64,000 bases of DNA from Bilabrum cf. latius (GCA_965178125.1 OZ237751.1:248001-312000); one strand, 5' to 3'; counted from the first letter of the stretch, positions 16,111 through 57,883 are shown. The notes: generated by a model not told the origin, from the sequence alone. A program made the numbers and translations.

Positions 16111-16851
16111 TTACTGCCTGCCAGCGTCACCTTGATCCAATGCGCCCGATCGTTCCGAATCCTCCTTTTTCTGCTTTTCCTCTTCCTTTAAACGGAATGA
16201 TGCGGCTGTCCCGCCGCCTTCCACTGCCTTCGCTCGCTTCCTATCTGTTTTCTCTTTGCTCAATCGGATGTGCCACAAGGGGTGCCTCTCTCGGTGCCGA
16301 TCCCGAAGCTCTGTCCATTCCAAAGCGAGCCTCTGCAGCCGCACAGTTTCCTCTGGGGATACTAGACGCATGTTGGTTGCCGCTCTCGCGGCAATTTCTC
16401 GAGCCTCCTCTCCGGAAAGCCCGCGCTACCTGGCTGCTAGCATGGCTCGCTGCTCTGCCGCTGCCCTAGTCGCACTGCGGCTGCCTCTAGCAAGCAAAGC
16501 TTCCGCCTCAGGACCTCCGCGAGCTAACACTCTCTATCTTTGCAAGCGTCCAGAAACGCGGAAAAACTAGCTTGCAAGCGACCCTGCCGCTCCGACAAAG
16601 AATAGCACTATGCCGATACCTATCCATCGCTACATACGATCCGCTGCTGCATCCTCCTCTGGATCACCTGTTTTCTTTCTATTAATCAGTTCACGAAACC
16701 ATGACTGCTCAAAGTACGGCTTGTACGAATCTGGCATCGTTTCCCTCCTTTCCTTGTACAATTCATACAAGTTCGGTTTTTTCTCTCCATTTCCCCCATC
16801 GACGGGTGGACTAGATGCTCGTACATATCTGCGCTGAATACACTTCGCCAT
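16111..16851 (-). CDS. Hypothetical single-pass membrane protein with a charged helical C-terminus (about 246 aa)
   Basis: ORFs 16630-16851 and 16111-16371 are one frame through TAGs at 16630, 16567, 16534 and 16426. TM segment WIGIGIVLFFVGAAGSLA. Ends at TAA 16111-16113. No recognisable family. Confidence 0.55.
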
Positions 16852-17066
16852 CTAAACTTCAACAAATGCTGCAGCTACTTGAATCTGCACTTGGGCACCA
16901 GGTTCGCTTGTGATTAGGAACGTTCTTTGTCAGGCTTGCCACACAAAACACATCTTTCACGTGTAGCGTTCGGAGCGGCGATTATTGTACATTCATTGTC
17001 AACGTTTTGTGTTAATTAGAAAATATTCAACCTTCACCTGGAAGATCAAAGGATAGGCGTGAAGAT

Positions 17067-20000
17067 ATGTCCCAATAGTCCCGGGCAGGACGTTTGAACA
17101 CCCAGCCGCTTTGGAACGGCTCCAGAATCGAACTCGAACGCGGACCTCCTCGAGGTACCACCTAGTAGTATGGAATAATTGCTGACGCTGCCTTCTCTGG
17201 CCATCTTCTTCCTCTCGAATCATCGAGTAGCGATTCGTTCCGGGGAGACCATGCGTAGGCGCAGTTGGTCGATGCCCGCTTTGCACTGCGCGAAGTTGTT
17301 CAGCACAACTTCAGATTGGCGGCGTTGAATGATACGGCCTCGGGTTTTTAGAGGCGGTTCATTCGCATGGGACTGGAGGGGGCCCGTGCTGGGCTGTGGG
17401 CCCCGTACGTGCAGCTTGCCCGGATCGATCGGTCACGCATGAGCTTACCGGAAGCAATGCCGGAATCGCGAGACGGCACCGAAGCATCTGGAGCGGTAGT
17501 ATTCTACGTGTTGCTCTCGTAGAACAGCCGGGGGCGGGGGACTCAGGTAGACGGGGACCAGTCCGCCGGCAACATGGCCTCTCTGTCGGCGCAGCAGCGC
17601 GCCGCTCTTGCTCGCTTTCAGCTGGCCCCGCGACCGAGGATGGGCGCGGGTGCTAGCGAGCAGGGACCGGTGATGCGAGCTGCCCTAGAGGCTGCAACGA
17701 TTTCGAGGGCAGTAAGGCCACCAAATGCGGCGGGGTCAGCCGCGGGGAGCGCGCTCGTTGAGTCACCTGGAAGGGCGGGCGCCAGTGGATCTGCTCCCCG
17801 TGCTTCCAGGTCCACACAGAGGGGGTCAGTAGAAGGAGTCAACGCTGCTGGGGCAGGCGTGCAGAGCTACGATGGCGAGCCGTTGGGCTCGCTGGGCACG
17901 CATCACGACGTGCATGCAATGGCAGCTGAAGCGGGCAGCTTGCAGTCGCTGGCTTCCAACATGGCGCCCGGCCAGTGTCAGCCCGTCCCACTCGCTGTGC
18001 TGAGGGCGCAGATGCCCGTGCCTGAAGGGAAGAGTCCTATCAAGCTGGACTGCCTGCAGTTGGCAGCCGGGCGCGATGCGCTTGGACAGCTGGGGGCATC
18101 GCGGGGTGCCGCTGAAGCAGGCCAGGCACAGCGCGGGGGTACCGGCGATGGCAGCATCGGTAGTTGCAGCCTGCCTTTTCTCAAGGCAGGAGACATCGTC
18201 ACGCACGTGAATATGGAACCAGTGGATGGACCATTGGGGCTGGCCAGTGCGCTGGAGTCCAGCTCAAAGAGGCCGTACTAGACCGAGGGTCTCTCAGTTG
18301 ACCAGCTGCGCGCCAATTTCCTCCACAAGGAGGCAGCGGTAGCAGCAGCGGGCAGGGTGCTCTCCTCCACCAGTGCCAATGAGAGCGCCACCCCGGCTTC
18401 CAGTGATAGTCTGACAGCCAGCGATGACACTGTCGCCCTTGTCTTGCCCCGAGGAACCGCTCTGCTCCGCGTTGTGAGGCCGCTCCCCGCGCTGCTGAGC
18501 GACTCAGGGACACTGGGCACCAGCGACGTGGGGCAATGGGACCGGTTGCGACTCGGAATCAGCAGCACGATGAGACGGCTGGCGGAGGCAGAAACCAGGG
18601 CAGCGGAGAGGGTCCGCAGGCTCAGGACAGCAGCGACGGCCGCGCGGTCGGATGACCCGTGGGCCGCTCCTTTGCCCTTGCCCGCGGCCCTGAGGGCAAT
18701 GCGCGCGATTGGCATGCCATCGACGCGATTCGAAACCAGTCATCGAGCTAGCAGGCACAGATTGCCGCTTGCATGTCCGGGAGTGATTGGAATGCTGCGC
18801 GGGCGCAAGCTTGGTGTTGCTCATCGTGCTTCGAGGGCATCGCGAAGCTCGCGCTTGCGAGCCATGGGTAGGCAGCCGAGGCCAGCTTCCCCTTCATTGT
18901 CATTCGCGCCATGCTAGCCCAGGGAGCAGGTGTATGGCCACGCAGAGGCGAGGACTGAGAGAATGCTTGCACACACGTTGCCTGCAATACTACCTCGCTA
19001 GCCCACCTCTAGCCAGCACGCAGCCTCCAGCCAGCTCGTCCGGAGCACAGCAGGCTGCGAGATGGTGGCAAAGATGCGATTGCGGTGCATGGTTTCTGGC
19101 CATGCATTTCAGCAAGGAAACGATCTGCAGACAGACAGGCTGGGCCAGGCGTGGTTTACCGCCTCGGACGATGGAACCGTCAAGATTTGGAATCGGAAGA
19201 CTAGCATTTTGCTTGCCACATTGCGCACAGGCAGGCGCTCGGTGGTCCAAGACTTGGCCCTGTGTCCCAGCGGGGCTCAGCTGGCAGTATCGTTTGAGCC
19301 GTGCGTGGCAGTTCCCGATCCTTCGAACGAAGGGTTGGACAGGATCGAGATGCTGGGGCCAGGCGCGCCTCGCGCCGTGAGGGTGTGGTCCTGGCGCGGA
19401 GGCGAAGACGAGCGAGGTGGGGAGGACGAGGACGATGACGATGACGAGGGAGAGGGAGAGGCTGGGGTAGCAAGAGAAGCCCATGTTCTGGTCGGACACA
19501 GCGCGCTGGTAGGAATGGTGGCGATGGATACGGGGTACAGTGATGTCGTGTACACAGTCGGTGACGATGGTATGCTCGTGGTCTGGGACCTGAAAGGCCA
19601 GTACCTTCCGCAGCCCATTGCAGCGGCAGTGCGTGCCGATGCCAAGAGGACGGAGGCTGCTGCTGAATTCAAGGAAGGCAGTGGTGTAGGGCAGCTGGCG
19701 ATGGAGGATGACGAACGTGGGAGCCCAGCTTCCAGCTCTGCGTCCAGCAACGGACCCTCTTCCGCACCTGCCCCCGGCCGCGATGCCGGGAGTGGCCCCG
19801 AAAGTGCTTTTTCCAACGAAATCGATGGTCAAGAGGTTGACCCTGCCCAGCGACGCACTGGTACGGTCGTGTCCGACGATGGCAGCACCTTTCCCATAGA
19901 GCTGCTCGGCGACTTGCACGCAGACAAATCTCGCTCCCTCAGACGGAGTGGGTCTATCAGCAGCACCGCACAGGGGCCGTTGGAAGGGCCCTGGTCCAAG

Positions 20001-23000
20001 ACAGACAGAGGGTATGTGTGGCGCCCATAGGTTGGCTACGACCCGGCAATCGCCCGTTTGTTGGCCTTAGAGCGATCCAGCGAAGGGGCTCCAGCCGCAG
20101 GAAGGGCTATTGCCGACGTCGAGGCCATGGATGATAGTGACTCTGCCGCGCACGTGCCGGACGATGCTGCGGAGGAAAGTGAAGACGGCGTCGCAAACAA
20201 TGGGACAGACTCCGAGCGTAAATCGCGATATCATGAAAAGAGCTCCCGGTATGACGCCATGCTGCCTCGGGAGGTTGAGCTGGGCACCACAGCAGCAAGG
20301 AAGGCGCTTGCAGACAGGCACAGTCGGGCTGTGGTGACCACTACGCTGCCACACGGCGTGCCAGGCGGTCAGCGACCCGCAGATGGATCGGCTGCACCAT
20401 CACTGGACCCCGAAGCGGGGGCCGGGAACTTTTTTCCGACGGTGCCTCCCGGCATGGCGGTACTTCGAGTGGTGCACGTGTCTCCAGGGGACGTACAGGC
20501 CGCGGCTGTGGAGGCCATTGCGGTGCATCCAGCCGGCGGCATTGTTGCTACAGGGAGCCAGGACGGCCAGGTTAGGTTGATTCGGTCTATTTATGACTCG
20601 AGCGTGCAGACTGAGTAGCAACTTCGCGGCCGCGAAGTGAGTCGCGGTGGTGTGCCTATCAGCACCCAAGGCAAGTCAGCTAGCAGGCCACCGAGCGTGA
20701 GCAGGAGAGAGCCTCCTGCTAGCTCGCTGTCATCTTCATCGCCTGCCATGACCAATGTCACCCCCGTTCTGGACGGGACTGTGATGTCGAACCTGAGCGG
20801 GCACACTGACCGGATCGACCGTCTGGAGTTCAGCCGAAGCGGTCACGCTCTGCTGTCCCTGTCCGATGACAAGAGCGCGAGGCTGTGGCTTGTGGCGCCA
20901 GACCCGACGAACGCTGTGTCGTTGAAGCTAGACAGCGCGTTTGAGAACGACCGGCTCATAGCAGACGCAGGGTATGGCTTGGATGAATCGGGGGTAGGTG
21001 CGCATCTGTTTGGCGGCCTTGCAGCGCAAACGCGCAGCACGTACAACGCATCTTTCAAGGCAGCCTCAGCCACCCCGAGCAGTCACAGGCGAAGGAGCGC
21101 AAGATTTTCGGGTGCATTTTAGGTGGAGGATTCCAGAGAAACGGGAGGCAACGAGGCATACCCAACCGTGGGTGACGCTCGTTTCTCGTGCGATGGTCGA
21201 TTCGTATTCACCGTCCATTCCGTGGCGCTGGCGCGGCGGCCTAAGTCTGTTAGGGGTATGCCCAACCACATGTCTGACCTTCGAGTATGGTGCTCGTCCA
21301 CAGGAAATCTACTGCACTGCCTGAGGCGAATCGAGCTCGAAGCTGTGGTGTGCGTCAAGCCGCACTCGACCATGCCTCTTGTGGTCGCAACTTCGAATTC
21401 TCTGGGCGGAATCAGAGTGTGGCACGCAGGAAGCGGTGCGCTTCTGCTGCACAGACAGGTGACACTGCACGACGACCCCGGGTATGAGGCTCTGCTGGAC
21501 GCGCCCTTGCAAGCAGTTCAGGTCCCAGATCTCCACGGCGCAGAGCAGAGGTGCAAGCGCTTGCTGCGGTAGCACTTGCAGAGATCGGCAGTAGCGGGTC
21601 AGGGGTCTGGGAGCAGCCGTCAGCAGAGGTAGGGCCGGCACGCTGCCGCGGTTGGCGCATCATCGTCCTCCGCACAGGACAGCTCGCTCGATGCACAGGT
21701 GCAGCGGAGCTTTGACCGTGCATGTCGAGTGGCAGAAGCGATCCAGCAGGCACAGAGGCAATGTCCCACTTTTGGAGACCTGAGCATCACGCACGGTGTC
21801 GCCGGGGTGCGCCACATGTGCTGGTCGCCGGATGGGCTCGAACTGGCTGCTCTGGATGACTACTCTAGGCTGTGCGTGTTTGGCCCGAAGGACTCAACGT
21901 GGGGCCAGGTGGGCTTCCAGCTATCGTTTCCGCCGAATGAAGGGTGGGATACTCTCAAGCTGTTGTGGAGGCTGTTGCGGGAGAGCAGCGAGGCAACACC
22001 CGGGCGCAGGTAGCTCCGCATGCGCGCCCCGTTGGGAATGCAAGAGATCAAGACAGGTGACGCAGTCGACCACGATGGGGAAAATGAAGAGGACGAGGAC
22101 GAGGAGGAAGACAATGACCTGGAGGTAAATAGGGGGCCTGCTGTGGTGTTGCGCGGGCGCGCCATGCTTCCACCTATGGATCAGCAGCTGGCACTTGAAG
22201 AGGAAGAGATGGAAATCGACCACCTGTACCAGCAACAGGAAAGGGCGACCCAGCGCGCCAGCGAGCAAAGCCTCCTGGAGCCGAGCCAGCTCCGCAACAG
22301 GAGAAGACCATACCCCGTGGAGTTCAGGCATCGTGCTGTGAGGGATATGCCCGGCCCCGGGCCGTACAGACCAGGGTACGCTCCGTTTCCGAGCCCGGAG
22401 TCTCGCCGGCGGCAGCTTGCCAACACATTTGATGACACGTGCGTTCCCTTGACAAAGCGCAACTAGCTCCGGTGGCTTACTGGGAGTGATATGGAGCTGG
22501 CGTTTGACGAAGTGCCGGGTAGCTCAATGCGACCGCCGACAGAGCTGGTGGCCCCCCTACTGCAGACCCTGAGCATGATCCGAGCGGCATTATCCAGCCG
22601 GGCGGGCGGGGGCCGTGGCAATGGCCGTGCACTGTCACTTGGGCTTCGACAGGCACTCTCCCGCGTGTTTGGACACGTCGCGCGAAGGCTGGCGAGGAGT
22701 CGACCAAGCCGGGATGTGCTGCGGTTTTTGCAGGATCAGCCCATGGCTGTCCCTGCGGCAGCTGCTCACGTTTTGGCTGAGACGTTGCGGGCAGCAGCGC
22801 AACAGCTCGTGCCAGCGCCCGGCACGTTGGCTTGCATCGACCTGTCCGAGTGTCCGGATCTCGTCAATGTGGGCGAGACGCCCGCTTTGCCCGACATTCC
22901 CGACTTTGAGGATGCCACAGACGGCGTGCTGGACGTCAGGAAGAGGCTCATTGTGCCATTTGGAAGGGCTGTCCAAAGGGTGAACCCAGGCAGCTTCATG

Positions 23001-26000
23001 GGGATATTGGGACATCTGCGAGGAGCTTTATCTGGTCGATGGGCGCTCCCAGACGGCACTTGGTTCGACGACGCTGCCCCTGCTTCGGCGCATACCAGCG
23101 CAGTTGTGCCTCGGCCTCGACTGCGTGCCTCGGCTTCCGAATCGTCGGTTCACGGCGCTGCATCGTCTGCCCCTGCGTAGGCGAGACAGCAGCGGTCTCG
23201 CCGAGCGAGACTCGTGTCCAGGAGCATGCGTGACGACTCCAGTTCCGATTCCGAGGAGTCGAGCGTGGTGGCACGGGGCCGGTCCATGTACGAGCGGGCG
23301 ACCGAATCCATCGACGTGCAGAACCGCAGAGCGGCGGAGCAGCAGAGGCAGAGGCAGCTGAGGTACAGGCGCCGGCGGGGTGTAGCAGTGCTGCCCGGGT
23401 CAGACGAATCTGACGGATCCGGCAGTGAGAGCGGCGGCGGCGGCGGCTTGGATGATTCCACGGGCCTCGGCGGCGGCGCATTTGTTGGCGGGGACAGCGA
23501 AGAAGACAGCGACTACGAAGCAGGGGGCAGGGGCAGCTAGCGGATGCGCGGCCGCTCTCGTCGCGTGGGTGGCCGCTCATCCCGCAGGAGACATGCCCAA
23601 GCAACTAGGACCAGTGGCAGGGCGAGGAGGCCGCCATCTCGACTTCTAGATGCCGGCGTGGAAGGGGATGGTGGTGCGTCACAAGAGAGTCGGCGGGATG
23701 GCCGGGCTAGGCGCGCTGCGAGGCGTGCCGCCCGCCGTTTCATAGAGCTGTCGGGGTCGGAGCGCGACGGGGACGAGGACCAGCACGATGGTCGCGACGA
23801 TCAAGATGGAAGCGATCTGGGCTTTGGTGGCTCAGACGATGACGATGACGGGCATGGAGCAGGCTTTGCTTCGCCCGAGGAAAGAGCAGCGGCACGGAAG
23901 CAGGGGGAGGCGCTGGCACTGGTGCGGAGACACTTCGATCCACCTAGCCTACCCCGCAGCGACTGGCTGCGCAGGACGAGGCCGTCTCCGGGGGCATACG
24001 TGCCCCAGCTGGGCGACGAGGTGGTGCTCGTGCGACCCGCCTTCGAGGCCTACGTGCAGGCTCAGATCGACGCGAGAGGCGGTGACGATGCGATTGAGAT
24101 ACCCACGGCGGCGTGGGGCAGATCTGCGCAGCTCGTTGCGTGCAGGGTCGTATCGATTCAGTTCGCATTTCCTGCTGCCGACCTCGGCAGGACGAATTCG
24201 CCGCAGAGACGCCGACCCGTTCGCGGTACCACCCATCGCGGGCAAACCTGGTTCCATGAACGGACAAAGGCGGGTCGCATGCGGCTGGACGTGCTGGCCA
24301 TCATAGAGCTGAGGCCCGACCAGGTGCTAGACGCCTCAGGCAGCGGGAGAGTGTCTTGGAAGACGCCTCGAAGGGCCAGCATGCCCAGACCAATCAAGGT
24401 GCAGCTGACTCGCAATCGGGGCGACGAGTTCCTTGTGTTGCGGTCCCGGTTCGACGCATGCATGCAGCTGCTCGGCGGGCAGATGAAGCGCGGGGCCCGG
24501 TGCAGGGTGGGGTACCTCGAGGGTGGCGACTATGCAGAGCACCGGGCCTACGGTCCTGCTTTGGATGGCAGGCATTACTCGGCGTTCCCGTCCATTGGGG
24601 CTGGAATCGGCCTGGAAGACGCACAGGAGGCGCCTTGGCAGCTTGCTGACTAGGCAATGGTGCCATCGGCTCCCTTTAGCATGGACTCCCGCCTTTCGTC
24701 CCTATTGCCAGCGTGGCGTTCGCTGGCCTGGAGCGCAGACATTGGCGCGGTGATTAATTTTGATGCGAGTCCAGGGTATGGAGACCCAGTTAGAGTGCTC
24801 CAGTTCGGAAACGATGACACTGGTGACTCTGCCGCGTCATTGGGTGCTGCTAGCAGCGCTTCCTCATCAGCGTCGTCCTCAGTCTCCTCTGAACCGCCGT
24901 GCTCAAGCAAGGGTGCAAAAACAGAGGATCAGCAGCCTGCTGATTTCCTGGATGCAGTGCGACCCCTGGACCCGCCTCCCCTTGAGGAAGACGGGCCGAT
25001 CGCTAAGCTGTACCCAGGCGTGATCCTGGACCGAGCAGGAGCGCAAGCCCAGCAGCAGGGGCTGCCACAAGACGATGCTCCCTCTAATGACGGCTCAGGC
25101 GGCCGGGGTGCCTCCGCAAGGAACCGCCATCGGTCTCCTGCTTCCAGCTCCAGCTAGTAGCAGCTCTACAACTCTGTACGGGTCCACTTCGATGGGCAGG
25201 CACCTGATCTCGTCTCTCCCTGGGAACTGATTCCTGCTCCCTCACGGCCGGCGAGCAGCTCCGGCTCTGCTTCGTCGGGCGCCGAGCCAGATGCTCCGTC
25301 CGAAGCGTAGCTTCTGTCTGCAGCCCTCGGGATGGTGCAGGAGGGACGGGCAGGAAGCGGTGCAGGCTCCGGGGCTGCAATCAGTGCAGGCTCCGGGGCT
25401 GCAAGCGGCGGAGCAGGTAACGGCAAGGATGGTCCCGGAACTGGTCGCAGCAGGAGTGCTCGCGATCAGGCAAAAGACCTCGCTGCCATGACCATGTTCG
25501 ACCGCTTGCCAGGCTTGCCCATTCGATTCAGAGCTGCGATGGTCCGGGGGCTGGTGGAGCTGAGGCGAACTGACGGCGTGTTGGCGGCAGCAACATCAGC
25601 AGCATCTCCAACACCATCATCCCATGCAGGCGCCAGCCTCGGGGATAGCGGGGATAGCGGCGGTGACACGTCTGCAGTGGGTAAATCCACTTCACAGGAA
25701 TCTGCTGCAGCGACACGCTCCACTCGCCCAGCAACCGATACAGCCCGGCGCCAGACCAGGCGCAGCAGTCGTTCGCCACAGGATGGACCGCCGTTCGAAA
25801 CGCAGGCAGCAGCCTCCGGTTCTGGAGGCGGCAGTGGCTTGTTGCGGTCGCGCAGCAGGCGAGGAGCTTCGGCCCGTGCAGTAGCGAACGACGCAGGCAA
25901 GCCTGACAGCAACAACAGCGGCAGCGGAGGCGAGGATGATTCCGCCGAAGACAACGCCCAGCTGCAAGTGGAGGCGTTTGTGCATGTGTTTGAGAGTCCC

Positions 26001-27173
26001 GCGTACCTTGCCTAGATCCCAGTTCCGATGTGCCTCACGACAATCCTGAGGCGGCTGCAGACCGGGTACTACCGGCAGCTGGCCTCTCTGCGAGCCGACG
26101 TGGATCTGTTGCTGCACAACTGCCGCACGTACAACAAAGCCGGCAGTGCTATCGTTCGAGTCGGAGAAAGGCTGCATGCACGTCTCCACGGCATGATTGC
26201 CGATGCAGTGAACGAGGCTGGCGAGAGTCCGTTTGGGCCTGAGGACTTCACGGATCCGAACAAGGATCCCGCGTGGAAAGCGGCGCGCTCTCGCGCTGTT
26301 CCCTCCACTCGTGGCGCTGCTGCGGGCACATCGAGCACAGCTGTGGCAACAAATGGTGTGAATCCTATGGCAGCTTCGAGCGGTACAAGTGCTGTGTCAA
26401 GCAGTGCCGATGGTACCGGAGCTGTTGGCACTCGGCCCGCTGGTAGCATGGATAAGGACGAGCTGCTGGCCCGACTGCACGGTATCATCGCCTCTGCCGA
26501 AGACCTGGACCCCAACGGCTGGTTTGCAGAGCCTGTACCGTTAGATGTAGCTCCTGACTACTTCGACCATGTGGATGTGCCCATGGACTTCAGCACCATC
26601 CGAGACAAGGCATAGAAGGGCAAGTACCAGGCTGTGCAAGATCTGGCCGACGACCTGCGGCTCATGTACCACAACGCGATGAAGTACAACGGGGAGGGTC
26701 ACGAGCTCTATCGACTTGGGGAAGAGTCTTGGGCAGCTGTGCTCCAGCTGCTGCGGCCCTTGCAGCAGCTGGCAGGCACAGCGCTCGATACATCTCGGCC
26801 GAGCGGCGTGGAGCTGGCAGCGGATGGTGGGGCAGGGTCGGTGCGTAGAGGGGCGCGGGCGGCGGGCCGCAAGCGAGGCAGAGACGAAGCAGGGCTTGCG
26901 GCAGACGACGAGGAGTACGTGGGCGAGGACGATGGTGAGGAGGACGAGGAGGCCGAGGCAGACTTCGATCGCAGAGCCAGACGTGCAGTGTCGTACAAGG
27001 AGTCTACCGATGAGGAGAGCGATGCCGATGACGACGAGGAAGAGGAAGAGGACGATGATGAGGATTTCGGGGCGTCGCGGCAGAGGAGCTCGCGTCAGCG
27101 TTCGAGTCGAAGGCAAGTCGAGCAAGCTTCCAGACACAGTCGCAGGTCGTCCAAGCGTAGGAGGCGGCGATGA
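17067..27173 (+). CDS. BRWD/PHIP-like WD40-repeat plus two-bromodomain protein (about 3368 aa, apparently intronless)
   Basis: WD40 motifs (FTASDDGTVKIWN, LVGHSALV, VATGSQDGQVRL, LSGHTDRIDRLEFSRSGHALLSLSDDKSARLW). BRWD central motifs (YVPQLGDEVV, EFLVLRSRFD, VSPWEL). Two bromodomains (IPVPMCLTTILRRLQTGYY...NCRTYN; FAEPVPLDVAPDYFDHVDVPMDFSTIRDK...NAMKYN). All fragments share one frame with about 24 TAGs and no TAA/TGA until TGA 27171-27173. Confidence 0.88.
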
Positions 27174-27577
27174 CTAGAGGATCTGAAGGCAAGTCGAGCA
27201 AGCTTCCAGACACAGTCGCAGGTCGTCCAAGCGTAGGAGGCGGCGATGACTAGAGGATCTGAAGGCAAGTCGAGCAAGCTTCCAGACACAGTCGCAGGTC
27301 GTCCAAGCGTAGGAGGCGGCGATGACTAGAGGATCCGAGTCGAAGGCAAGTCGAGCAAACTTCCAGACACAGTCGCAGGTCGTCCAAGCGTAGGAGGCGG
27401 CGATGACTAGAGGATCTGAAGGCAAGTCGAGCAAGCTTCCAGACACAGTCGCAGGTCGTCCAAGCGTAGGAGGCGGCGATGACTAGAGGATCCGAGTCGA
27501 AGGCAAGTCGAGCAAACTTCCAGACACAGTCGCAGGTCGTCCAAGCGTAGGAGGCGGCGATGACTAGAGGATCCGAG
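27103..27577 (+). repeat. Six-copy tandem repeat (76/81-bp units) of the last ~20 codons, stop codon and proximal 3' UTR of the BRWD-like gene
   Basis: Unit GAAGGCAAGTCGAGCAA(G/A)CTTCCAGACACAGTCGCAGGTCGTCCAAGCGTAGGAGGCGGCGATGACTAGAGGATC starts at 27109, 27185, 27261, 27342, 27418 and 27499. There are no unique spacers. Confidence 0.95.
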
Positions 27578-39661: not shown

Positions 39662-39964
39662 AATGACAGCATTACAACGAAAGCACCGGTCAACGCATGA
39701 TTGACTGCTGCAAAACGAGAGTGCCCCATACAAGAAAATCAAAAAAATAGACGGGACCAAAACGGGACTTCTCGTTTTTCCAGCGTCGTGGACGAACATG
39801 ATGTGGCTATCATTCGCCATTAGAAATTTACTGTACTAGCTAGTAATCCTGTCAATGAACGATGCGTTTCGCACGATGGTGGAGGTTCGGTCCGGTTCCG
39901 AGTTGATGAGAAGCCATAAATTTGTCATAGTACAGTTTCGCACAAGCTGCTGCGTCTTCTGTCA

Positions 39965-42061: not shown

Positions 42062-42151
42062 TCTCCAGGGTCGTCGTCGGCATTAGATCTAGGCCTAGGC
42101 CTAGGTCCAACCTGATTTCGGTTCCGAGTCATTCAACCCAGAACACCAAAA

Positions 42152-46920: not shown

Positions 46921-47166
46921 GCGCCCCAGGTGGCAGGGGCGGCCTGCCTCTTGCCGCGCGCGCCAGCGCCCGCCCTTCTCTAGCGCTCTCCGCACCACTT
47001 CGTATCAGCACGGCCTAATGACTTTGATCCGCCAAACAAGCCGGAATTGTATGCTTGATTTAATTATATAGCTGTCGAGTTGTCGCTCCGATCGGAGTCG
47101 CTGAGGGGGCATTATTCGAACGGCAATTTCGCCACCTGGCACCCGACGCAGTTCATACAAATTGCC

Positions 47167-48099
47167 ATGGCTGCCTCGTCAGGCTCTGGAGGTTCGTACG
47201 CGGTATCTGCGGATGCAGCTCGACGAGCGCTAGATTGCAAGACCGAAGGGAATAGACGATTCAAGCTGAAAAAGTATCGAGCTGCGATAGAAAGTTACAC
47301 TGAGGCAGTTGTACTCGATCCACGGATGGTCTCTGGTTTTACAAATCGAGCAACATGCTATAGAAAGCTTGCGGAGCCATCAATGGCGGCAGCAGATGCC
47401 CGGAAAGCCATTGCGCTTGAACCGCTGAACGGGAAGGCCCACTACTTGCTCGGGGCGGCGCTGGCAGACTCCTCTAAATTAGATGAGGGCTTGGCAGAAC
47501 TAGAGCGGGCCGTAGAGCTATTGAAGCGCTCCAAAGCGTCCGGTGCCATCGTGGATCAATGCAGAGCCGAAATTGCCAAGCACTCCAAGAGGCGCATGGA
47601 AGAAAAGGAAGGCGGCACTCGGCTTCGCGAGTGCATGGCAATGGAAACAGTGCACTCGATAGCGCAGCAGCTTGTTCGCTTGCGATCCTCGGGCGAGAGG
47701 GCAGGAAGCGCCAGCGGAGGTGCCGCCTCGCGGGCTGCCAGTGGAGCGGGGCCTGACGAAGAGTCGATCTCGGCCGCTTTGAGCACGCTGCAGGCTGCAG
47801 TGGACGAGCGGGCGGCAGCCGTGGCCACCCGCGAGATCCCCGACTATCTCACCTGTGGCATCAGCATGGAACTCATGTCAGATCCCGTGGTCACTCCCGC
47901 GGGGCACTCGTACGAGCGCAGGCACATAGAGAGATACCTGAGGAACCACAAGCAGGAAGACCCGAGGACGAGGAAGCCACTCAGGGTATCGGACCTGCGC
48001 CCCAATCTGGCCCTCCGCGAGGCCATCGAGGAATTCGTCAAACGGAACCCGTGGGCTCTCAGCGAGATGGCGGGCGTGGCCGACCACGTGCACGGGTGA
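47167..48099 (+). CDS. STUB1: E3 ubiquitin ligase CHIP (TPR plus U-box)
   Basis: TPR region CKTEGNRRFKLKKYRAAIESYTEA...NRATCY...KAHYLLG. U-box IPDYLTCGISMELMSDPVVTPAGHSYER...DPRTRKPL...LRPNLALREAIEEF. Ends at TGA. Confidence 0.93.
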   Translation: MAASSGSGGSYAVSADAARRALDCKTEGNRRFKLKKYRAAIESYTEAVVLDPRMVSGFTNRATCYRKLAEPSMAAADARKAIALEPLNGKAHYLLGAALADSSKLDEGLAELERAVELLKRSKASGAIVDQCRAEIAKHSKRRMEEKEGGTRLRECMAMETVHSIAQQLVRLRSSGERAGSASGGAASRAASGAGPDEESISAALSTLQAAVDERAAAVATREIPDYLTCGISMELMSDPVVTPAGHSYERRHIERYLRNHKQEDPRTRKPLRVSDLRPNLALREAIEEFVKRNPWALSEMAGVADHVHG

Positions 48100-48714
48100 G
48101 ATGCATGGGCTCTCAGCGGCGATGGCGAGGACGATTGCGATGGCGTTTTCGCGTGGCTGTGGGCAGCGCATTGCAAGTAGGGCGATGCGTTGCGTCTGTG
48201 CAAGTAAATCTGCACGAGCAAGCCACTGGCACTAGCTTGCAGCTGCGTTGCATATCTCGCTGGATGCTTCGCATCGATGGACGGATCCAAGGCAAGGATA
48301 GTCCGTGGCTGCTGCTTCGCCTGCTTGCATGTACCGTGGTAGCAGTGGAGTGATCGGTAAGCCGGGAGATAATAGAGCATGCAACAAGGTCCCAGGGGCA
48401 CTGCAGGGGTGGGAACACATGCATTGCACGACCTGATGGTCCGGGTGGTGGGGTCCAGCCAGAGAGGGCCTCAATCACGGGCTGGCCGGCTGCCAACCGC
48501 ACCCGGCCATCATCCATAAGTGACAACGCATGCACTATTGCCACAGGGCGGACACAACCCTATGGGGGCCGCAGACGAGGGCACGGGGGCGGCGCGGAAC
48601 GAACGAACGAACGAACGAATCTTGATTTTCGAGCAATCGCGGAGGCTCGCGGCGGAGCGAAGGTTCCGTGCACCCGCGGTGATTCTCTTTTCCGGGGACA
48701 TTTGTGCAGCAGCC

Positions 48715-49892
48715 ATGGACTGGCGAGAGCCCGCAATCAATGTTCTGGCTGGTGGAATGAGTGGTATGTGTGTAGACTCTGTGCTGTATCCATTGGATAC
48801 CATCAAGACCCGTCTGCAAGCTCGCAGTGATGCAGCAGCCGGGAAGGCAGTACAAAGCACTTCGAAGCAGAAATCATTTACCGCGTTTTATAGGGGTAAG
48901 TGCGCACTCAGTATCTACATCTTCTCTTGTTATAGCTCTGTAAAATCTCGCTGCGTTTCTGTGGGAGTCTCTCGTATCTGTCGACTCGCGATTCCGTGCA
49001 CAACTGCCGCGTGCCGATCTCGCTCGCAGGCCTAGCATCCGCAATGGCGGGCTCGTTCCCCAGCGCGGCGACATTTTGGACCGTGTACAAGGGTGCATAG
49101 TCTCGGCTGCTGCCGTACGTGGAGGGTACTAGCCTGGAGCCGCTGGCTCACATGGGAGCAGCTGCTGCAGCTGACGTGTGCGTCTGCGCTGTTCGAAACC
49201 CATTCGAGGTGGTCAAGCAGCAGATGCAAGTAGGAATGCACAAGTCTGGGATGGAAGCGGTGCGAAGCATCGTGCGAGCGGAAGGCGTGAGCGGCCTGTT
49301 CGCGGGGTACATCTCGACGGTCTCGAGGGAGATCCCTTTCGACGCCCTCGAGTTCGCCATGTACGAGGCCATCAAGAGGCAGGTTAGGCTCAGGAAGGCG
49401 GCCAGCATGGGCATACCTGGGGGCGGCAAGAACGGCGAGCGGCTGCCCGAGCTCGTGCTTTGGGAGAACAGTCTGGCGGGCAGCTTCGCGGGGGGGATTG
49501 CGGCAGCGGTCACCACACCGCTGGATGTGGTGAAAACGAGGCTCATGACACAGTCCTCGTCCGATGCCGGCAGGTACAGGGGCGTGACGGACGCGCTGCA
49601 GAGGATAGTGAAGGAGGAGGGGGCCTCTGCTCTCTTCCGTGGGATCGGGCCTCGCGTCATGTGGATCTCGCTGGGGGGGAGCATCTTCTTCGGGGCGTTT
49701 GAGGAGCTGTCTAGGAGGATGAGAGGGGCCCTTGGGCTGCAGGTGGGTATGACTGCAGGCGCAGGGTACGCGCCATAGGACGACAGCTCCAAACCAGGGT
49801 CGGCTTCGGCAGGGGGCGTGGGCAGCGCGGGAGCAAGTACCGCCGGTAACGGTAGCAGTGGCACTAATCATAGCGATACGGGAAGAAGATAA
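48715..49892 (+). CDS. SLC25A26: Mitochondrial carrier, S-adenosylmethionine carrier-like
   Basis: Three carrier signatures YPLDTIKTRLQ, NPFEVVKQQMQ, TPLDVVKTRLM, plus GSFPSAATF, REIPF and PRVMWISLGGSIFFG. Intron 48896-49029. TAG at 49098 lies inside the carrier fold, another at 49776; ends at TAA 49890-49892. Confidence 0.88.
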
Positions 49893-50037
49893 TGTTATTT
49901 GGGATTCCATTTTATCATCTGAGGTATTTCCAGTCCGCTGCGACCACATCGCGCCAGATTCCAGAGGTTGCGACCGCTCCAGAAAATCCGTTGTGCGGCC
50001 CGAAAAGACCACGTTTCTGTCCGAGGAAGGAGCAGTC

Positions 50038-51513
50038 ATGGACGCGGTTGCTAGAATATTGCAGCAAAAGACCCGTTCGGGCAGAAGGGGTAGCGTTTCT
50101 TCTATGGCCTCGCGCTCCACACGTGGCATAACCACGCGAGAGGCTGGCAAGAATCGCTGGCAAGCGCTGATTGAGGCGTTCCTCACTGCGCTTCGAGACA
50201 TTTCGGATAGGGTTCCAGCTGATGACGAAATTGAAATTGCTCGGCGATACTTGCAAGAGTTGGAGGATAAGACCCGAACTGACCACCTGAGATCTATCAA
50301 CGACACGGCCACCACTCCGCCTACAGAGCTCTAGCAGCAAGCACGGCAGCTAGCTGCTGCCGAGAAATGCATTTACGTTTGCGCCGCCGGTGAGATCGAC
50401 AAGGTCAAGGCAATCGTAGAGAAAGATTGGAATATGGTGCACCAGGTGGACCGCGACGGCAACACTGGCCTTCATGCTGCCGCGGCCATGAACCACGTGG
50501 CGGTCGTCAAGTATCTCCTCGGTAAAGGCGCAAATCCAAACAGTCAGAACTACAACGGATACACCGCGCTGCACTGGGCCATCGAGAACAACGCCATCGA
50601 CGTCGCGAAGCTCCTGCTCGTCGACATCCCAAAGCTGCTCAAAGAGACCCAGTCAGACTAGCAGCGCGCGCGGAAACTCGCTGCGGGGGACATCAGCGAA
50701 CTCAGACACCAGTCTTCCAGCGCCGCTGCAGGCGGGGCGCACGCAATGGGCGGTGCTGGCGCTGGCTTGCAGGCCGGGGCCCAGCCTGCTGTGCCCACGG
50801 GGGCACTGGCAGCCACTGGCTACGAGTCTTCCGGCCCTCCAGGGATGGGCTCCATCGCTCCCTCGGGGCGCAGCGGCCGTCCCACGGGCGGCGCTCGGCT
50901 GATGGCCGCCGGCGCGATCGACAGGCCATCCACCAGACCCGTGCCTCCGGGCGTGGCGCCTCCGACCCCCCGGTCCGTGGGGCTAGGGGTGCCGAGGGGC
51001 AGGGGCGGGCGCGGTGTGGCACCTTCCAGCAGCGCTGCCGTGACGGCGCCCGCGGGGCTGTCTGTGGGGGCGGGCGGCGTGGGGGGGGGCATACCCGTAT
51101 CCAGGACTGTCCCTTCGTTGGGGTCAGCGAGTGCGGCGGCCGCGGGTGAGACAGGTGGGCATGGCCTCACCGGATCCCAGATGCAGCTGATCGGTGGCAC
51201 CGAGCGCGGGGCGGAGGCGGAGGAGGCATCCATGATCGACGTGGCCGGGCGGGTGGTGGTGGACCCTGCAGTGAGGAACTCGGAGGGCGTGACGCCGCTG
51301 CGGATGGTGAGCTTCCTCAAAGAGAAGCACCAGGGGCCCATGAGGGAGCTCTTCAAGGAACACAGGCTGCTAACGGATCCGGACTTTGCCGCGGCAGAGG
51401 CGGAAAGGGCGGCAGCAGAGCGCGAGGCGAGGGCGAAGGCTGCACGCCGTGCTGGCAAGGGCGGCAGGGGGGCGCAGCCTCTCGGCGCATCGAAGCGGCC
51501 GAGTGTGTACTGA
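50038..51513 (+). CDS. Ankyrin-repeat protein with a long Gly/Ala/Pro insertion
   Basis: DRDGNTGLHAAAAMNHVAVVKYLLGKGANPN, NGYTALHWAIENN, RNSEGVTPL. One frame through TAGs at 50332 and 50659; ends at TGA. Confidence 0.78.
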
Positions 51514-51697
51514 TGATGGCGATTGAGTTGCCGCTCCGGCTTGCTGTAAATGCAGTTTTTCGTTTATCGCGCGTCGCTCTGTACTTGCCGATAGTCAACG
51601 GCCCGAGCACTTCACTGCCAGTGGGCATCGCCTCTGAATTCCGAGTCTCAGGTACCTTTAGCGACCAGTAATTGCTGTGGTTCTGTCCAGGAAGGAG

Positions 51698-54600
51698 ATG
51701 ATCCCTTTGCGTGAGCCATTGTTGCAGAAAAGAGGAATTCCAACGAACAAGGTCATCGCCAAGGTCGAAGGAGCTGGAGCAGCGATCCTGCCGTCGCAGC
51801 TCAAGCAGCTGAAAGCTGTTTGTGACAGCCTGTAGTGCGTATCAAAGCCCAAAAGGCTTGATCCTGCGCATATGAGATTTATTTTTGCAGAATTGCGGGA
51901 AATCGAAGCTGTCCCGGTGGCTATTCGTCTAGATCTAGTTCGAGCTGCAGCGGTCGTATCGACGACAAATCGACCTGAGATCGTGCGGAGCGCCATTGAA
52001 CTGTTGGACGAGTCGCTTGGCATTTTGAATGATCTCAGTCAGTCAGTTGGCGCTCGAACTATTGCTTGTGATCTTTGCGCGTCTCTTGTAGCAAGTAGTA
52101 CCGATGATGATTGCCACGTACCGGTTGCGCTCGACCTCATCGCTAGCGGCGTCAGCGTCATCTAGCCACCTGAAGAGGCTATGCTTGGCTCTATGGCATA
52201 GCGTACCAAGCTTGCTTTAGCTGGAGCTCGTCTGCTGGCAACCATTGCGTGGTGGGTGGGGAGCACAAATGCAAGCAAGTTGAGCGCAGCAGCCACAAAG
52301 CTTGCGCTTCAATGCCGACTCTGCATTCAGCAAGATTTATGTCGGGATCCTCATGATCGTCTGCCTGGGGTGCGGTGCGCACTAGTTTTGGCTCTAGGCA
52401 CGGTATGTTGCTCCAACGAAGAAGTTCGGCACTGTGTGGTCAAAGACGACAAGTTTATGACAAGCCTGTCCTCAGAGGTGGACCAACAAAGCAAAATCGA
52501 TGGTAGGGATGCATGGAGGGGTGCAGCTGCCGGTTCTGCTCGCGATCTCGATCGACAAGCCAGGCAGGCAGAGAGAGAGCTCCACGAGCTGCTGGTTGCA
52601 GGGCCGGCCAGCGGCCTCGTAGCCCGCGACGCTCCGGCTTCCACTGCACCAGTGCCAGTGGCTGGCTATGCTGGGGCCCAGACCAGCTCGGCAGCATCGG
52701 CTAGCACGTCTGGGGCGCTAGCGCCTTCGCCAGTGGCTGGCTATGCTGGGGCCCAGACCAGCTCGGCAGCATCGACTAGCACGTCCGCGGCAAGGGTGCC
52801 AGCGCCAGCACAAGCACCAACACTATCACCAGTGACTGCGACAGCAACAGCTGGGGCGGTTGCTCGGCATGGTCAAGCAGAATCAAACAACAGGGCTGCG
52901 CTCGAGATGTTCAACGGACTGGACGAGGTGGCACCAGTGTCTAGAGGGGCGGGTGGTGCCATGGATCCAATACGAGGCGAAGGAAGTAGCTTCAGCTCCA
53001 GTCTAGTTGATTTCATCGAGGGCGACCAAGACGATGAGAAGGCGTGGGATCCCCAGGTTGAGTTCGATGAGGCCAGGCAGAGCGTGTCCCTGTCCGTGTA
53101 CGAGGAAAATCAGAGGCAAGCTGCCATCACTGGAGTAGGCAGACGGTTCCAATCGCATGCTATGGAGGCAGCCAGAGGTATGCCAGCACTTCTTGGACTC
53201 GGGCAGGTCATCTCGGAGACAACAGACGCACATATGCCGGTGGCTGCGCCTGCAGATCCGGTGGATCCACCTGGTCGCGTGCTACCGGCATCCGGAGCTG
53301 GTGCAGGCGATGCCCACAGCCCAGATCGCACCCTTGCAGACGTTGTAGCGACAGCAGGTCTCGTCCGAGTGGCTGTCGGGGGTGAAGCAGGCGGGGCAAA
53401 AGCAGAACACAAGAAGTTTGGGCTATTCCTCAAGACCCCGGAAGACAGGTTTGGCATGTACGGTAGCGAGGTCATGGCGGCCAAGGTCATGAAGCTGGAG
53501 ATGAAAGCAGCCAGGTGGGTGCATGAGATGGACTCTGTACATGCCGGTGGGGTCCTGACAACCGTGATAGATGTGCCTTTTGTGCGCGCTGAACCTGAGA
53601 TCGGGGATGCATCCGGGGCTGGTCCCAAGTCCCGGGTGCCTGAGGTGGGCGGGGTGCAGCGGGTCCAAGTCTAGGCAAGGCTGCCGGTCGGAAGCAGCAC
53701 GCTACGATACGGATCAAATGACTCCGGGAAGACGATCCACAAAGACGCTGAGCTCCACAGCGATGTTGTAGTGCCCCTCATGGATCACTTCCACCTGCGA
53801 TCCATTGGGCACTAGCACAACCAGTGCAAGAATATCGTTAAGCATTCGTACGAAGCGCGTTGCCTATCAGAACCTGGTGGGACCAGCTCGGGCGCCGCTG
53901 TCGCTGCCACTACCGCTGGCTCCATGGACGGGCTAACTCGGAGGCGGTTCAACCTGCGTGATGAACTGCGCTCCGCTGGTGTCGATGTTGCAGAGCTGGA
54001 CAGCGCTGCCATCCCTTCTGACTTCGGCGAGGATTCGGTCGACACGATGATTGCGGACAGTCGCGCACTGCTAGATTACGCTGTCGAGAGTGGCACTGTT
54101 TAGCACAAATAGATCGAGTTGCAAGCAGCCACTGCACGGCGCAGCGGGTTGGAGTGCGATCCGTGGAACTGTGTGATGCATGCCTTGCCCTTTGATGTCG
54201 AGGTGCATCAGCTTCCTTCAGGGAGACGGATTGTGCTCGACAGTCACCGATTGCTCATGCCAGACCTCCATTGGATTGACTGGATGCGATCACAGAACGC
54301 CCTTCCTCGCGTATACGCATTGCACAAGGTCACTACTGAATCAACGTAGGTTGAGGCTGCAGCCGGCGCAATGCATGACAGCACGACGGCAGTAGATCCG
54401 GCTGTCGGTGAAAGCGAGTCAACAGTACCCCCTCTACAAGCGATCCCAGCCACCAAGTCAGCATTCTCGTTGAGGGTCCAGGAAGGGGTGCTCCCGGAGC
54501 ACATTCCGTGGGATTCCACAATGAAAACAGCCGCGCCTGCTGCAGTGCAACACTGGGCCGAGAGTTGCGGCGTATTACGTGGAGGGGCAAAAGTTTGTCT

Positions 54601-57600
54601 GCATCTCGGATTCAGGGGAGCAGGCCTTGTCTTTCTTTCCGCCGAGCAGTTGGATGGATCTGGCGTGCTGTTTGTGCTGGCATGCCCGGCCTGGTACTGG
54701 GGCAACTTGCCCGAGATAACGTGCTTATTCCCGCCAGAAGCTGCCTCAGTAGTCAAAGAACTCAGGGATACCGATGGCAATGTCTTGCCCCGCGTCGCCC
54801 CGGATGCTGTGATGCAGAATGGAATGGATCCCGATGGTCAGCACAAGGCCGATCTCAGGCTCGTGTCAGCGGCTCTGTGCAGCGAAGTCTAGATGTGTTC
54901 GGTGCACGCTGAGATACTCAGCGAATTGGACAAGCAGCAGTTATCAAATCGCGATCAAGCTGCACCCTGCAGCTCTGGCAGGTCATCATCCACGTGGAAC
55001 TCTTCAGCATCATCTAGCTTTCCAGCTGCATCTTCGCAGGCGCTTGAGAACATAGCCGGCTTCGGCTCTCGTCTATTTAGTGCTAGGCAAATTGTGAAAG
55101 GTGTTTTGAAGAAGTACGGTCTATGCCTTAGGCACTTTGGCATGCTAGTTGAGGCGGTTGAGAAGAACAATTGGCGCGAACTCCCCCTCATTGTCTTGGT
55201 TGCGTGCACGTTGCCTCGGGCGATGTCGCCTGCGGGACACGAGCTTCAGTCAGCGATCAAATATGCCACTTCTTTGTGGAGCAACCAGCAAGCAGGGAGG
55301 GGCTGTCTCGCTGCATCGATTGGGTGTATGCCACCTCAGCTGCTCAGAATTTGTGCCGTGGCTCGAGGGTATGCAGCCAGGGGGTGTGCCGGCCGGTACG
55401 GCACTTTGGACGCAGATGCACCACTGGTCGCCGAGGGTGCTGCCACTGAGCCACTATTGGAGCTGCTAGTGCAATGGCATCGCGAGCAGCAGGATACGTT
55501 GGGATCTGCAGCTGGCTAGTCCGGTGACATACCTTAGGAAGCCGGCCAAATCACGCCACACATGCGCACAACAGCTGCCGCTGGCATCCAGCACGCCAGC
55601 AGCTCTGGCCCAGTAGTCCGTAAGCTGGACGGGTCGATTGACCTGTAGCACGGTAGAAAGCAACTCGATCGGATGCTTCGTGAGCTAGCTCATGTGCAAC
55701 GTGTGGGTGGCACGGCAGAGCAGCAATTGCTGATGTCAATTTCGCTGCTTGGCCAGCGAGGCGCCGAGTACCGGCCTCTAGCGCTGCAGTGCTTGATGCG
55801 AGCAGGTGGCCTTTCCCTGCTTGCACAGGAACACGACTGTTCGAATTGGCCGCGAGTCTATAAAGAGAGAGAAGTTGCAGCGGAGCTCGCCGCACTAGGA
55901 TGCATGACCGCATCTGCAGGAATCCTTGAGCGAAAAGTGACAGATACGGGGGCAGAGGCAGTTATGGTGGGTTGCAGCCTAGCAGATATCAAAGATAAGG
56001 TTGGAAAGCCTGAGGAAGCCGTCAAAATTCTGAAGGGGTGTTTGGACGCGCTGCTGTCTAACGCGGACTCCAACGCTCGGTTCGTTGCCATCATTCGGCA
56101 CAACATCGCAAACTGCTTGTTGCGAGCCGGACAGTGTGTTGAAGCTATTCCGTTCTTCGAGCAAAGCCGGAAGGGAATGGAGAGCTTGCGCATGACCACG
56201 CACTCTGCGTACTGGAATTCCCTTCACTGCCACGCAAATTGCTTGTTTCAGCTTGGGCGGATGCCGGAGGGAGAGGAGCTGTACAAGCAGTGCTTGGAGG
56301 GGACGCGCAAGCACCTTGGGCCTGACCACCCGAAGCACTTGGACATCCAGCAAAACTACGCATCGATTCTCATTCTCAATGGATGTAGCTCAAAGGCTTT
56401 GAGTATATTAAGGAAGGTCGAAGAGGCCCAGGTGCGACTGCTTGGCAACGGAAGCTTGTTGACCATTGACACGAGCGTTCGGCTGTGCAGGTGCCTTGCC
56501 GCCCTGGGAAGGCACGATGAGGCAGTGGCTACAGCCGATCGGCTTATCCCAGTTGCCAATCAATCGCTAGGTGTGTCTCACCCCCACGTATTCATGGCTC
56601 GGTTGACTCGAGCGATGGTTTTGACGGTATCGCGCCGATGTGCGGAGGCACTCCCTGACTTACGATTGGTCGAGAAGGAAGCGGTCGTTGCACTCGGTAG
56701 CGGCCACACCCTGCACCTTGAGGCAATACTTAAGTAGGCTCACTGCCATGAAAGGTTGGGGCAGATTCAAGAAGCGTACAACGCCGCAGCGAGGTTCAAG
56801 AGCTGCGCTGATCCGAGCCGAATGGATCGACTTTATGTAGAGGGCATTACTGCCTTTGCGTACTATGCATTCACGCTTCGAGACTTCGAGACAGCCAAGC
56901 AGGAAATATTGCGAATAATGCCCGCAGCTCGATAGCTCTTTGGGTAGGAGAGCCTGCGGTACTGCAAGAACTAGAGCCTGCATGCCGCCTGCCTGCGAGA
57001 GCAGTGGCTGCTCACGCGCGACTCATCCAAGATCACGCAGGCGTGCGACATCTTCCTGCAAATCATTGCTTTGATGCGCAACTTTGTTGACGTGAACGAC
57101 TCTGACCTGATGGAGACAATGGGGAACTGTGTGTTGTGCCTCGCGGACGCCGGGCGGTATGCAGAGGCTCTGCCCCTCGCTCGCGAAAGGTGCGCGTGGG
57201 ACCAGAGGGAGTACGGGAAGCTGTCGCCCAAACTTGAACCTATGTTAGAGCTGCTAAATGAGTGCCATCGAGGGCTCAAAATGTCCGCGGGGGCACAGAG
57301 TGCTCAGTCACAGATTGGGCAGACGGTGGGTGAGTTCAGCACCTTGGATAGCCTGCAGCGCGGGTCTCAGGCTGCTGCTATGCTACTGCAGGCGAACAGG
57401 GGAGAGGAATCCGTGGCCATGTTCTAGAAGTGCCTGCAGGGTGCCACGAGTCTTTTTGGCGCGACAGATCCGAACACTCTTGCTGTGAAGTAGAATCTGG
57501 CTGCCGCTCTCGTGTAGGTTGGGCGGTCTCGAGACAGTTGGAAGCTGTTTCGGGAGTGCATTGGCGCCTTGGAAGCGGAAGGTCACTCACTGCAAGCAGC

Positions 57601-57883
57601 AAGTATTCGATTAAACTTTGCAAATAGTTTGCTTGCTGCAAGCAAGTACGGCGAGGCTCTCGAGTGCCTAGAGCACTGCATCCGGGTGCTGCCTCGAGAG
57701 GATCCTTGTCGGGTGGAGGCCTCAATCTACGCCTCCCGGTGCCATGAAGGACTCGGTGACCGCGAGAAGGCGCTCGCAGTCATGCTAGAGGCTCAATTTG
57801 CTGCGCAACAGGTGCTCGGATCAGCACATCCACACACGCTGTCCGCTGCTCATGAATGCGAGCGACTCATGGGGGGATCGTAA
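51698..57883 (+). CDS. Clu-domain plus TPR-repeat protein (CLUH-like architecture; paralogue B, about 2061 aa)
   Basis: KFGLFLKTPEDRFGMYGS..AAKVMKLEMKA, VLTTVIDV, RVQV(TAG)ARLPVGSSTLRYGSNDSGKTIH, LPFDVEVHQLPSGRRIVLDSHRLLMP, VLKKYGLCLRHFG, then kinesin-light-chain-type TPRs (LGPDHP, LGVSHP, LGSAHPHTL). A single frame with about 19 TAGs; ends at TAA 57881-57883. Confidence 0.8.
52655..52785 (+). repeat. Two-copy internal duplication (75-bp period) encoding PVAGYAGAQTSSAAS(A/T)STS
   Basis: CCAGTGGCTGGCTATGCTGGGGCCCAGACCAGCTCGGCAGCATCG(G/A)CTAGCACGTC at about 52655 and 52730. Confidence 0.85.

Follow-up and report, generated by a model that had tools for sequence, protein, structure and literature searches.

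Gene content of the window

The 64,000-nucleotide stretch of DNA analysed here (the window), recorded as Bilabrum cf. latius (GCA_965178125.1, OZ237751.1:248001-312000) and numbered from its first letter, carries genes whose open reading frames (ORFs) contain TAG codons, often many of them, and this work concerns the meaning of UAG in the genome from which it comes. Its guanine-cytosine (GC) content is 56-67% in 2-kb bins and about 60% overall. The gene products identified with Pfam are typically eukaryotic and include a WD40 and double-bromodomain protein, two tandem CLU/TPR_12 paralogues, an RNase Z-like metallo-beta-lactamase, a Patched/SSD protein, a GT64 glycosyltransferase, an FG-GAP repeat protein, a CHIP-like TPR/U-box ligase, a mitochondrial carrier, an ankyrin protein, an NDK-domain protein, an IGPS-PRAI fusion and MTP18; the CHIP and IGPS-PRAI family calls were confirmed by Atlas look-ups. 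Jointly with the reading of its code set out below, the window is probably nuclear DNA of a GC-rich, intron-poor eukaryote.

The length of these genes depends on how TAG is read. With the stop set of NCBI translation table 11, a single ORF exceeds 704 amino acids, and this frame of 2175 amino acids is free of TAG. When TAG is read through, ORFs of 3368, 2061, 1587, 1152, 968 and 738 codons appear, containing 24, 19, 10, 3, 4 and 2 TAGs, respectively, and Pfam domains are present both upstream and downstream of in-frame TAGs. The longest, the WD40 and double-bromodomain gene (17067-27173, plus strand, 3368 codons), has 24 in-frame TAGs, no TAA and no TGA before its terminal TGA at 27171-27173; 22 of the TAGs lie upstream of both bromodomains, and one lies inside each of them (26013 and 26613).

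Stop codons within and at the ends of genes

UAA and UAG nearly always share a meaning, and only a handful of nuclear lineages split them (PMC11687900 and PMC5304391). An earlier note on this DNA had claimed such a split, with UAG as a sense codon and UAA as a terminator, and had named Iotanema spirale and phyllopharyngean ciliates as precedents, which both sources bear out (PMC11687900, PMC5304391). Over the 17,388 codons of 20 modelled exon or ORF segments, we counted 87 TAGs in frame (about 0.5% of codons), no TAA, in agreement with the earlier note, and no TGA. The two off-frames of these segments contain 27 and 57 TAAs, 266 and 295 TGAs and 145 and 118 TAGs, respectively. The in-frame TAGs are spread evenly along the genes, with 19, 11, 20, 16 and 21 in successive quintiles (n=87). 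Among the trinucleotides of the plus strand of the whole window, TAA is the rarest of the three (165, with 479 TAG and 755 TGA).

Six genes end at TAA, and all six positions given in the earlier note were recovered as in-frame ends of modelled genes. Two are on the minus strand, namely a 246-codon gene without a Pfam family and with four in-frame TAGs (16111-16851; stop at 16111-16113, with the next in-frame TGA 12 codons further on) and the GT64 gene (exons at about 29510-28797 and about 28400-27735; stop at 27735-27737, next TGA after 19 codons). The plus-strand cases are the 2175-codon FG-GAP gene (32492-39019, no TAG; stop at 39017-39019, next TGA after 22 codons), a 698-codon gene with two TAGs and no Pfam family (39965-42061; stop at 42059-42061, next TGA after 17 codons), the mitochondrial-carrier gene (exon 1 at 48562-48894, exon 2 at 49029-49892; stop at 49890-49892, next TGA after nine codons) and the 2061-codon CLU and TPR_12 gene (51698-57883, 19 in-frame TAGs; stop at 57881-57883, next TGA after 30 codons). 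Over the 300 nt past the TAA, GC drops in five of the six genes, and after the TAA at 42059 it goes from 0.68 to 0.51; the sole end lacking a drop is that at 16111, where the downstream DNA enters a convergent neighbour. In the FG-GAP gene, a predicted membrane span and then a short tail precede the TAA.

Ten further genes end in frame at TGA, three on the minus strand (1964-1966, 3446-3448 and 58146-58148) and seven on the plus strand (10760-10762, 15989-15991, 27171-27173, 31381-31383, 46918-46920, 48097-48099 and 51511-51513). In the CHIP-like gene, the TGA lies 15 residues past the C-terminal U-box. Eleven TGA ends had been reported in the earlier note; our recount gives ten, and two further TGA-closed ORFs on the minus strand (5673 and 28797) were rejected as gene ends, being exons of the Patched-like and GT64 genes that run on into introns. 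No 6-mer motif common to the regions downstream of the 16 gene ends was found.

Since the gene ends had been set with TAA as a stop, the absence of in-frame TAA requires an independent argument. The number of TAAs expected if TAA shared the meaning of TAG was scaled from the TAG count by the CAA/CAG (0.32), AAA/AAG (0.35) or GAA/GAG (0.42) ratio, which gives 28-37 against none observed, with a probability of observing zero of 9e-13 to 1e-16; computed from the off-frame density, this probability is 6e-19. When TGA is taken as the only stop, the six TAAs all fall 9-30 codons before the end of the frame (P 2e-10 under uniform placement). TAA is thus confined to frame ends and TAG is evenly spread, so that UAA acts like UGA, and UAG like a sense codon.

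TAG codons in RNA-like contigs

All or part of the stretch is present in ten public runs, four of which, from one sample (X1-X4), contain 0.99 of the sampled words; the depth of X1 is flat. Contigs of runs X1, X5, X7 and X8 were placed on the 20 kb from 38501 to 58500. Within this interval, a 134-nt GT..AG intron of the mitochondrial-carrier gene (48895-49028, plus strand) is retained in X1 and spliced out in the contigs of X5, X7 and X8, which come from studies P2 and P4. None of the runs is recorded as RNA, and it is from this splice joint that we take X5, X7 and X8 to contain RNA. The sequence of the window is matched by four DNA-like runs and by three RNA-like ones. Across the 20 kb, the listed base differences number two (38641 and 44045), neither of them at a TAG, and 20 of the 35 in-frame TAGs of the interval lie inside listed RNA-like pieces with no differences. 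As these 20 TAGs are unchanged and unspliced in RNA-like contigs, complete editing, unrecognised introns and assembly error are excluded there.

The RNA-like contigs also reach several of the TAA ends. Record 9 of X5 spans the TAA of the FG-GAP gene. Records 12 and 15 of the same run end at 49910 and 57951, after the TAAs at 49890 and 57881 and short of the next in-frame TGAs at 49920 and 57974, respectively, which is only a weak hint of transcript ends. Taken together, UAG lies in frame, is transcribed and is unedited; UAA and UGA do not occur within the frames and stand at the gene ends, where they serve as terminators of six and ten genes, respectively. The frame-aware counts, the placement of TAA and the RNA-like contigs strongly back the uncoupling of UAG and UAA that the earlier note had proposed.

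The amino acid encoded by UAG

Comparison with homologous proteins indicates that UAG probably encodes glutamine (Gln, Q), with lysine (Lys, K) and glutamate (Glu, E) as the main alternatives. All the TAGs that lie in well-conserved contexts, in an ortholog, in a paralogue motif and opposite the closest CLU homologues, face Q, and for this reason Gln is the best reading. The earlier note had also assigned Gln; the assignment stands on these three sites, but a scan of Pfam scores did not separate Gln from Lys and Glu.

The first of these sites, at 53672-53674 (plus strand), lies in the conserved CLU domain of the second paralogue, within the motif VQRVQV-x-ARLPV, and the tandem paralogue has a TAG at the equivalent position (44429-44431). 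Searched exhaustively with HMMER, the CLU region gave 87 matches, 47 of which align at the site, 46 of them with at least four matching flanking residues. Of those 46, 16 have F opposite the TAG and 13 have Q; L, Y, T and S occur there three times each, M and C twice each and G once. The 12 best matches covering the site have Q in eight cases, F in two, and M and L in one each. The 47 aligned residues include no E or K. The second site, at 46279-46281 (plus strand), lies in a conserved motif (LRHVxHVGG / LAHVQRVGG) of the first paralogue, at a position where the second paralogue has Gln. At the third, 17520-17522 (plus strand), the TAG faces a Gln of a protein fragment from a relative (P0097) that is 85% identical to the window and has identical flanking residues.

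A first protein search returned nothing above 35% identity, and a scan of metagenome contigs gave one locus (L001, 33% identity), which was not used. Word-based protein searches returned one close fragment each, and the four close-relative fragments (P0010, P0024, P0096 and P0097) are 85-89% identical to the window. Compared with the window at 17367-18128 and 53777-56383, the relatives' fragments start at an internal Met and end where the window has a TAG. P0010 terminates exactly before the TAG at 54101 and P0024 beside the TAG at 54890; P0096 has no TAG within its span. Fragments that end just before the TAGs of the window, or start after them, are the outcome of gene calling with the standard code if those TAGs are conserved. 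Evidently, standard-code gene calling was applied to a close relative and truncated its proteins, and TAG is probably retained at the same codon positions in the relatives.

In the Pfam scan, TAG was set to Q, E, K, L, S, W, Y or X at 12 sites in five domain segments, and the scores were compared in bits. Bromodomain 1 scored 56.5 with Q, 55.8 with E, 58.5 with K, 58.1 with L, 56.7 with S, 57.0 with W, 59.2 with Y and 57.6 with X. In the same order of residues, the scores of bromodomain 2 were 78.1, 78.8, 78.4, 76.5, 76.8, 77.8, 75.3 and 76.8; those of Mito_carr 157.5, 156.8, 158.9, 156.0, 156.6, 155.6, 155.8 and 156.4; those of TPR_12 65.8, 65.7, 67.4, 64.7, 65.4, 57.9, 62.4 and 62.2; and those of CLU, highest with Q, 27.5, 25.0, 25.3, 24.6, 25.0, 24.4, 24.5 and 24.8. 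The sums are 388.5 for K, 385.4 for Q, 382.1 for E, 380.5 for S, 379.9 for L, 377.8 for X, 377.2 for Y and 372.7 for W. The scan suggests that the residue at TAG is polar, and it does not tell Q, K and E apart.

Several observations weigh against Gln and would fit a code with UAG as sense and with UAA and UGA as stops in which the residue inserted is not Gln but Lys or Glu, whose codons AAG and GAG are one base away, or leucine (Leu) or serine (Ser). The Lys sum lies 3.1 bits above that of Gln, which makes the Gln assignment thin. P0010, 85% identical, has K at the TAG at 53813, in a stretch that is variable and in which a true Gln codon of the window also faces K. Among 11 TAGs that could be aligned between paralogues, one faces TAG and only two face Q, and each of the other eight faces a different residue (E, D, A, R, I, H, L or S). 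Hydrophobic residues are found at the CLU and bromodomain sites of the more distant homologues: F faces the CLU site in 16 of the 47, the sole PDB repeat aligned to the bromodomain with the TAG at 26013 has I there, and the matching motif position in other bromodomain repeats is I, V, Q or T. In the PDB alignments, both bromodomain TAGs fall at variable positions, and the TAG at 26613 faces K, R, M or S. Precedents for UAG as Leu and as Ser also exist (PMC11687900). Nevertheless, a residue other than Gln appears unlikely when set against the three sites in well-conserved contexts, all of which face Q, the absence of E and K from the CLU site and the clearly lower scores of W and Y. Furthermore, Pfam profiles tend, in our uncalibrated judgement, toward K at variable surface positions. 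As for Leu and Ser, they are not borne out by the conserved-context sites and score 5-6 bits below Q, over few sites.

Decoding of UAG and alternative explanations

We consider it probable that UAG is an ordinary sense codon in this genome, most likely for Gln, and that UAA and UGA are the sole terminators, which is the pattern of NCBI translation table 15; this table translates the end of the CLU-TPR gene as modelled. A transfer RNA (tRNA) with the anticodon CUA, arising from tRNA-Gln(CUG) through a single base change in the anticodon, would pair with UAG and not with UAA, and because of this pairing, a tRNA-Gln(CUA) could free UAG alone. The release factor eRF1 would no longer release efficiently at UAG and would keep its recognition of UAA and UGA. 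The presence of tRNA-Gln(CUA), the lack of a tRNA(UUA) and an altered eRF1 are the standard prediction for codes of this type (PMC5304391). Within the 64-kb window, no tRNA or transfer-messenger RNA was found with ARAGORN and no Rfam family was detected, and a general Pfam scan found no eRF1 domain among 30 ORFs of the window.

Near-cognate UAG readthrough inserts Gln, Tyr or Lys. It might thus be that eRF1 has lost UAG and that tRNA-Gln(CUG), perhaps with Lys and Tyr tRNAs, fills in, with mainly Gln but mixed insertion. The ambiguity between Q and K in P0010 and in the Pfam scan fits such mixed insertion, and cognate tRNAs are still unfound for most variant nuclear codes (PMC5304391). We hold this to be quite unlikely, as the 24 TAGs of a single gene demand efficient decoding and suppressor tRNA(CUA) genes were found in the scanned genomes of UAG-reassigned ciliates (PMC11687900).

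A context-dependent code, in which UAG would usually be read as an amino acid yet would also end translation close to some 3' ends, was weighed as well. Precedents for ambiguous stop and sense use are UAA in Blastocrithidia and all stops in Condylostoma. The earlier note had cautioned that its gene ends were partly defined by reading through TAG, and this caveat stands: the gene ends are no independent proof that TAG never terminates. Other points also count against an exclusively sense UAG. TAG lies within the last 40 codons of three genes (GT64, RNase Z-like and mitochondrial carrier), and the GT64 tail, beyond the last conserved domain block, contains five TAGs, including a TAGTAG pair; in these three tails, off-frame stop counts and composition give no frame signal. 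Codon-usage log-odds, a weak discriminator, average +0.10 after TAGs (83 segments, 76% above 0) and range from -0.30 to +0.18 after terminal stops. In the contigs, rare variants may be hidden, and RNA 3' ends are not visible. On the other hand, no gene in the window requires a TAG stop, TAG is not enriched near 3' ends (21 of 87 in the last fifth), and the TAA or TGA present at the end of each gene is followed by a change in composition. In Iotanema, where use is unambiguous, all 81 candidate terminal UAGs were judged more likely to be sense (PMC5304391). Termination at UAG in some contexts is, on balance, improbable here.

Far less credible is a code of the table 6 type, in which UAA and UAG would both mean Gln, TAA would be rare through GC-richness and the apparent TAA ends would run on to the next TGA. 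The rarity of the TAA trinucleotide on the plus strand is in its favour, but it would leave unexplained the missing in-frame TAAs (P ≤ 1e-12), the position of all six TAAs 9-30 codons from the ends of TGA-delimited ORFs and the composition shift straight after five of them. An artefact under the standard code (pseudogenes, unrecognised introns, RNA editing or assembly errors), for which nothing speaks beyond TAG normally being a stop, can be set aside just as firmly, given 17,388 codons interrupted by TAG only, RNA-like contigs that pass unspliced and unchanged through 20 TAGs, DNA-like and RNA-like runs that match the window, and relatives that appear to have TAG at the same positions.

Comparison with other nuclear codes

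Further UAG-only codes have been described in Protocruzia tuzeti (Gln), an uncultured, insect-dwelling rhizarian (Leu) and Scotinosphaera (Ser), and phyllopharyngean ciliates have reassigned UAG to Gln twice and also to Leu (PMC11687900, PMC5304391). The closest likeness in code is to Iotanema spirale (Panek et al. 2017, PMC5304391), in which UAG alone is reassigned, apparently to Gln, with UAA and UGA as stops, and for which the same mechanism is predicted, namely a tRNA-Gln(CUA) and a change in eRF1. In contrast to what would be expected of an anaerobic fornicate, the window has a mitochondrial carrier, MTP18, CLU and tryptophan synthesis genes. Its gene ends are TGA and TAA in a ratio of 10:6, whereas UAA is the dominant stop of Iotanema spirale (PMC5304391).

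The codon table of Protocruzia tuzeti and of two phyllopharyngean lineages, like NCBI table 15, is identical to that of the window (PMC11687900). The commonest stop of these UAG-only ciliates, by a wide margin, is UAA, and UGA is used least (PMC11687900), while UGA is the commoner one here. The window, with 56-67% GC, 10-kb genes and long low-complexity proteins, is also unlike a ciliate macronuclear genome. The rhizarian exLh (UAG to Leu) and Scotinosphaera (UAG to Ser) share with the window the uncoupling of UAG from UAA, with UAA and UGA as stops, but the conserved-context TAG sites of the window face Gln, not Leu or Ser; stop use in the rhizarian is 56 UAA to 15 UGA (PMC5304391, PMC11687900).

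In codes of the table 6 type, UAG likewise means Gln, but UAA is not a sense codon in the window. Holders of that type include many ciliates, Dasycladales, Hexamita, Streblomastix and Amoeboaphelidium.

Reassignment of UAG alone is therefore already known as a kind, and what may be new is the lineage that carries it here, together with its genomic background. A search of the literature for a GC-rich, non-ciliate genome with UAG as Gln found none, the supplementary taxon lists of PMC5304391 and PMC11687900 being left out. We put forward, tentatively and with slightly less than even confidence, an independent origin of this code in a lineage from which no such code has been described, an aerobic, GC-rich, intron-poor eukaryote that is neither a ciliate nor a fornicate, with at least one relative (85-89% protein identity) that seems to keep the TAG positions. 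If true, it would be the first UAG-only case in a GC-rich genome with UGA, not UAA, as the commoner terminator. In such a genome, UAG would not have been lost as a stop through adenine-thymine (AT) pressure, which would argue against simple codon capture. The described UAG-only ciliates and rhizarian are UAA-dominated, so that the contrast is relevant to the question of whether such a change requires codon capture under AT pressure (PMC11687900, PMC5304391). Each new UAG-only lineage also tests whether a suppressor tRNA with a CUA anticodon frees UAG alone while eRF1 continues to read UAA. On the practical side, annotation with the standard code would break the longest genes of this genome, and the public proteins of its relatives are already fragments ending at TAG positions.

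Other features of the window

The product of the FG-GAP gene (32492-39019, plus strand) has a signal-like N-terminus, five near-identical units of about 438 residues, a Ser/Pro/Thr-rich unit of 12 residues repeated in a long array at its centre, and a membrane span at the C-terminus; the gene has 66 CAG or CAA codons yet no TAG. The two CLU paralogues lie in tandem at 42152-46920 and 51698-57883 (plus strand), and only the second has the long TPR_12 tail. In the first, the reading frame shifts between about 44657 and 45007, by an intron or a frameshift. The ankyrin gene ends in a tandem double stop, TGATGA (51511-51516). A 76-nt tandem repeat at 27109-27573 (six copies, 95% match) begins within the final codons of the bromodomain gene and crosses its TGA stop into the 3' region; each unit carries TAG twice.

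Among the introns of the window, that at 48895-49028 is the only one with RNA support, and genes of up to 10 kb lack introns. On the minus strand, an intron splits the MTP18 gene (1964-3246) into two frames, and another, at about 5680-5790 in the Patched-like gene, breaks a GIGxDD-type motif. An amylase-like protein gave no matches against PDB.

Depth rises at 41169-41835 to 83-418 in all four runs placed on the 20-kb interval. Within this segment, several chimeric joints and loose ends cluster at 41532-41598, within the portion of the gene coding for a low-complexity run of the KDKGKG type; this looks like a repeat common to other loci. Sequence nearly identical to 47001-57000 is found in runs under four organism labels (A-D) from four studies, with small shares in runs labelled 'algae metagenome' and 'protist metagenome'.

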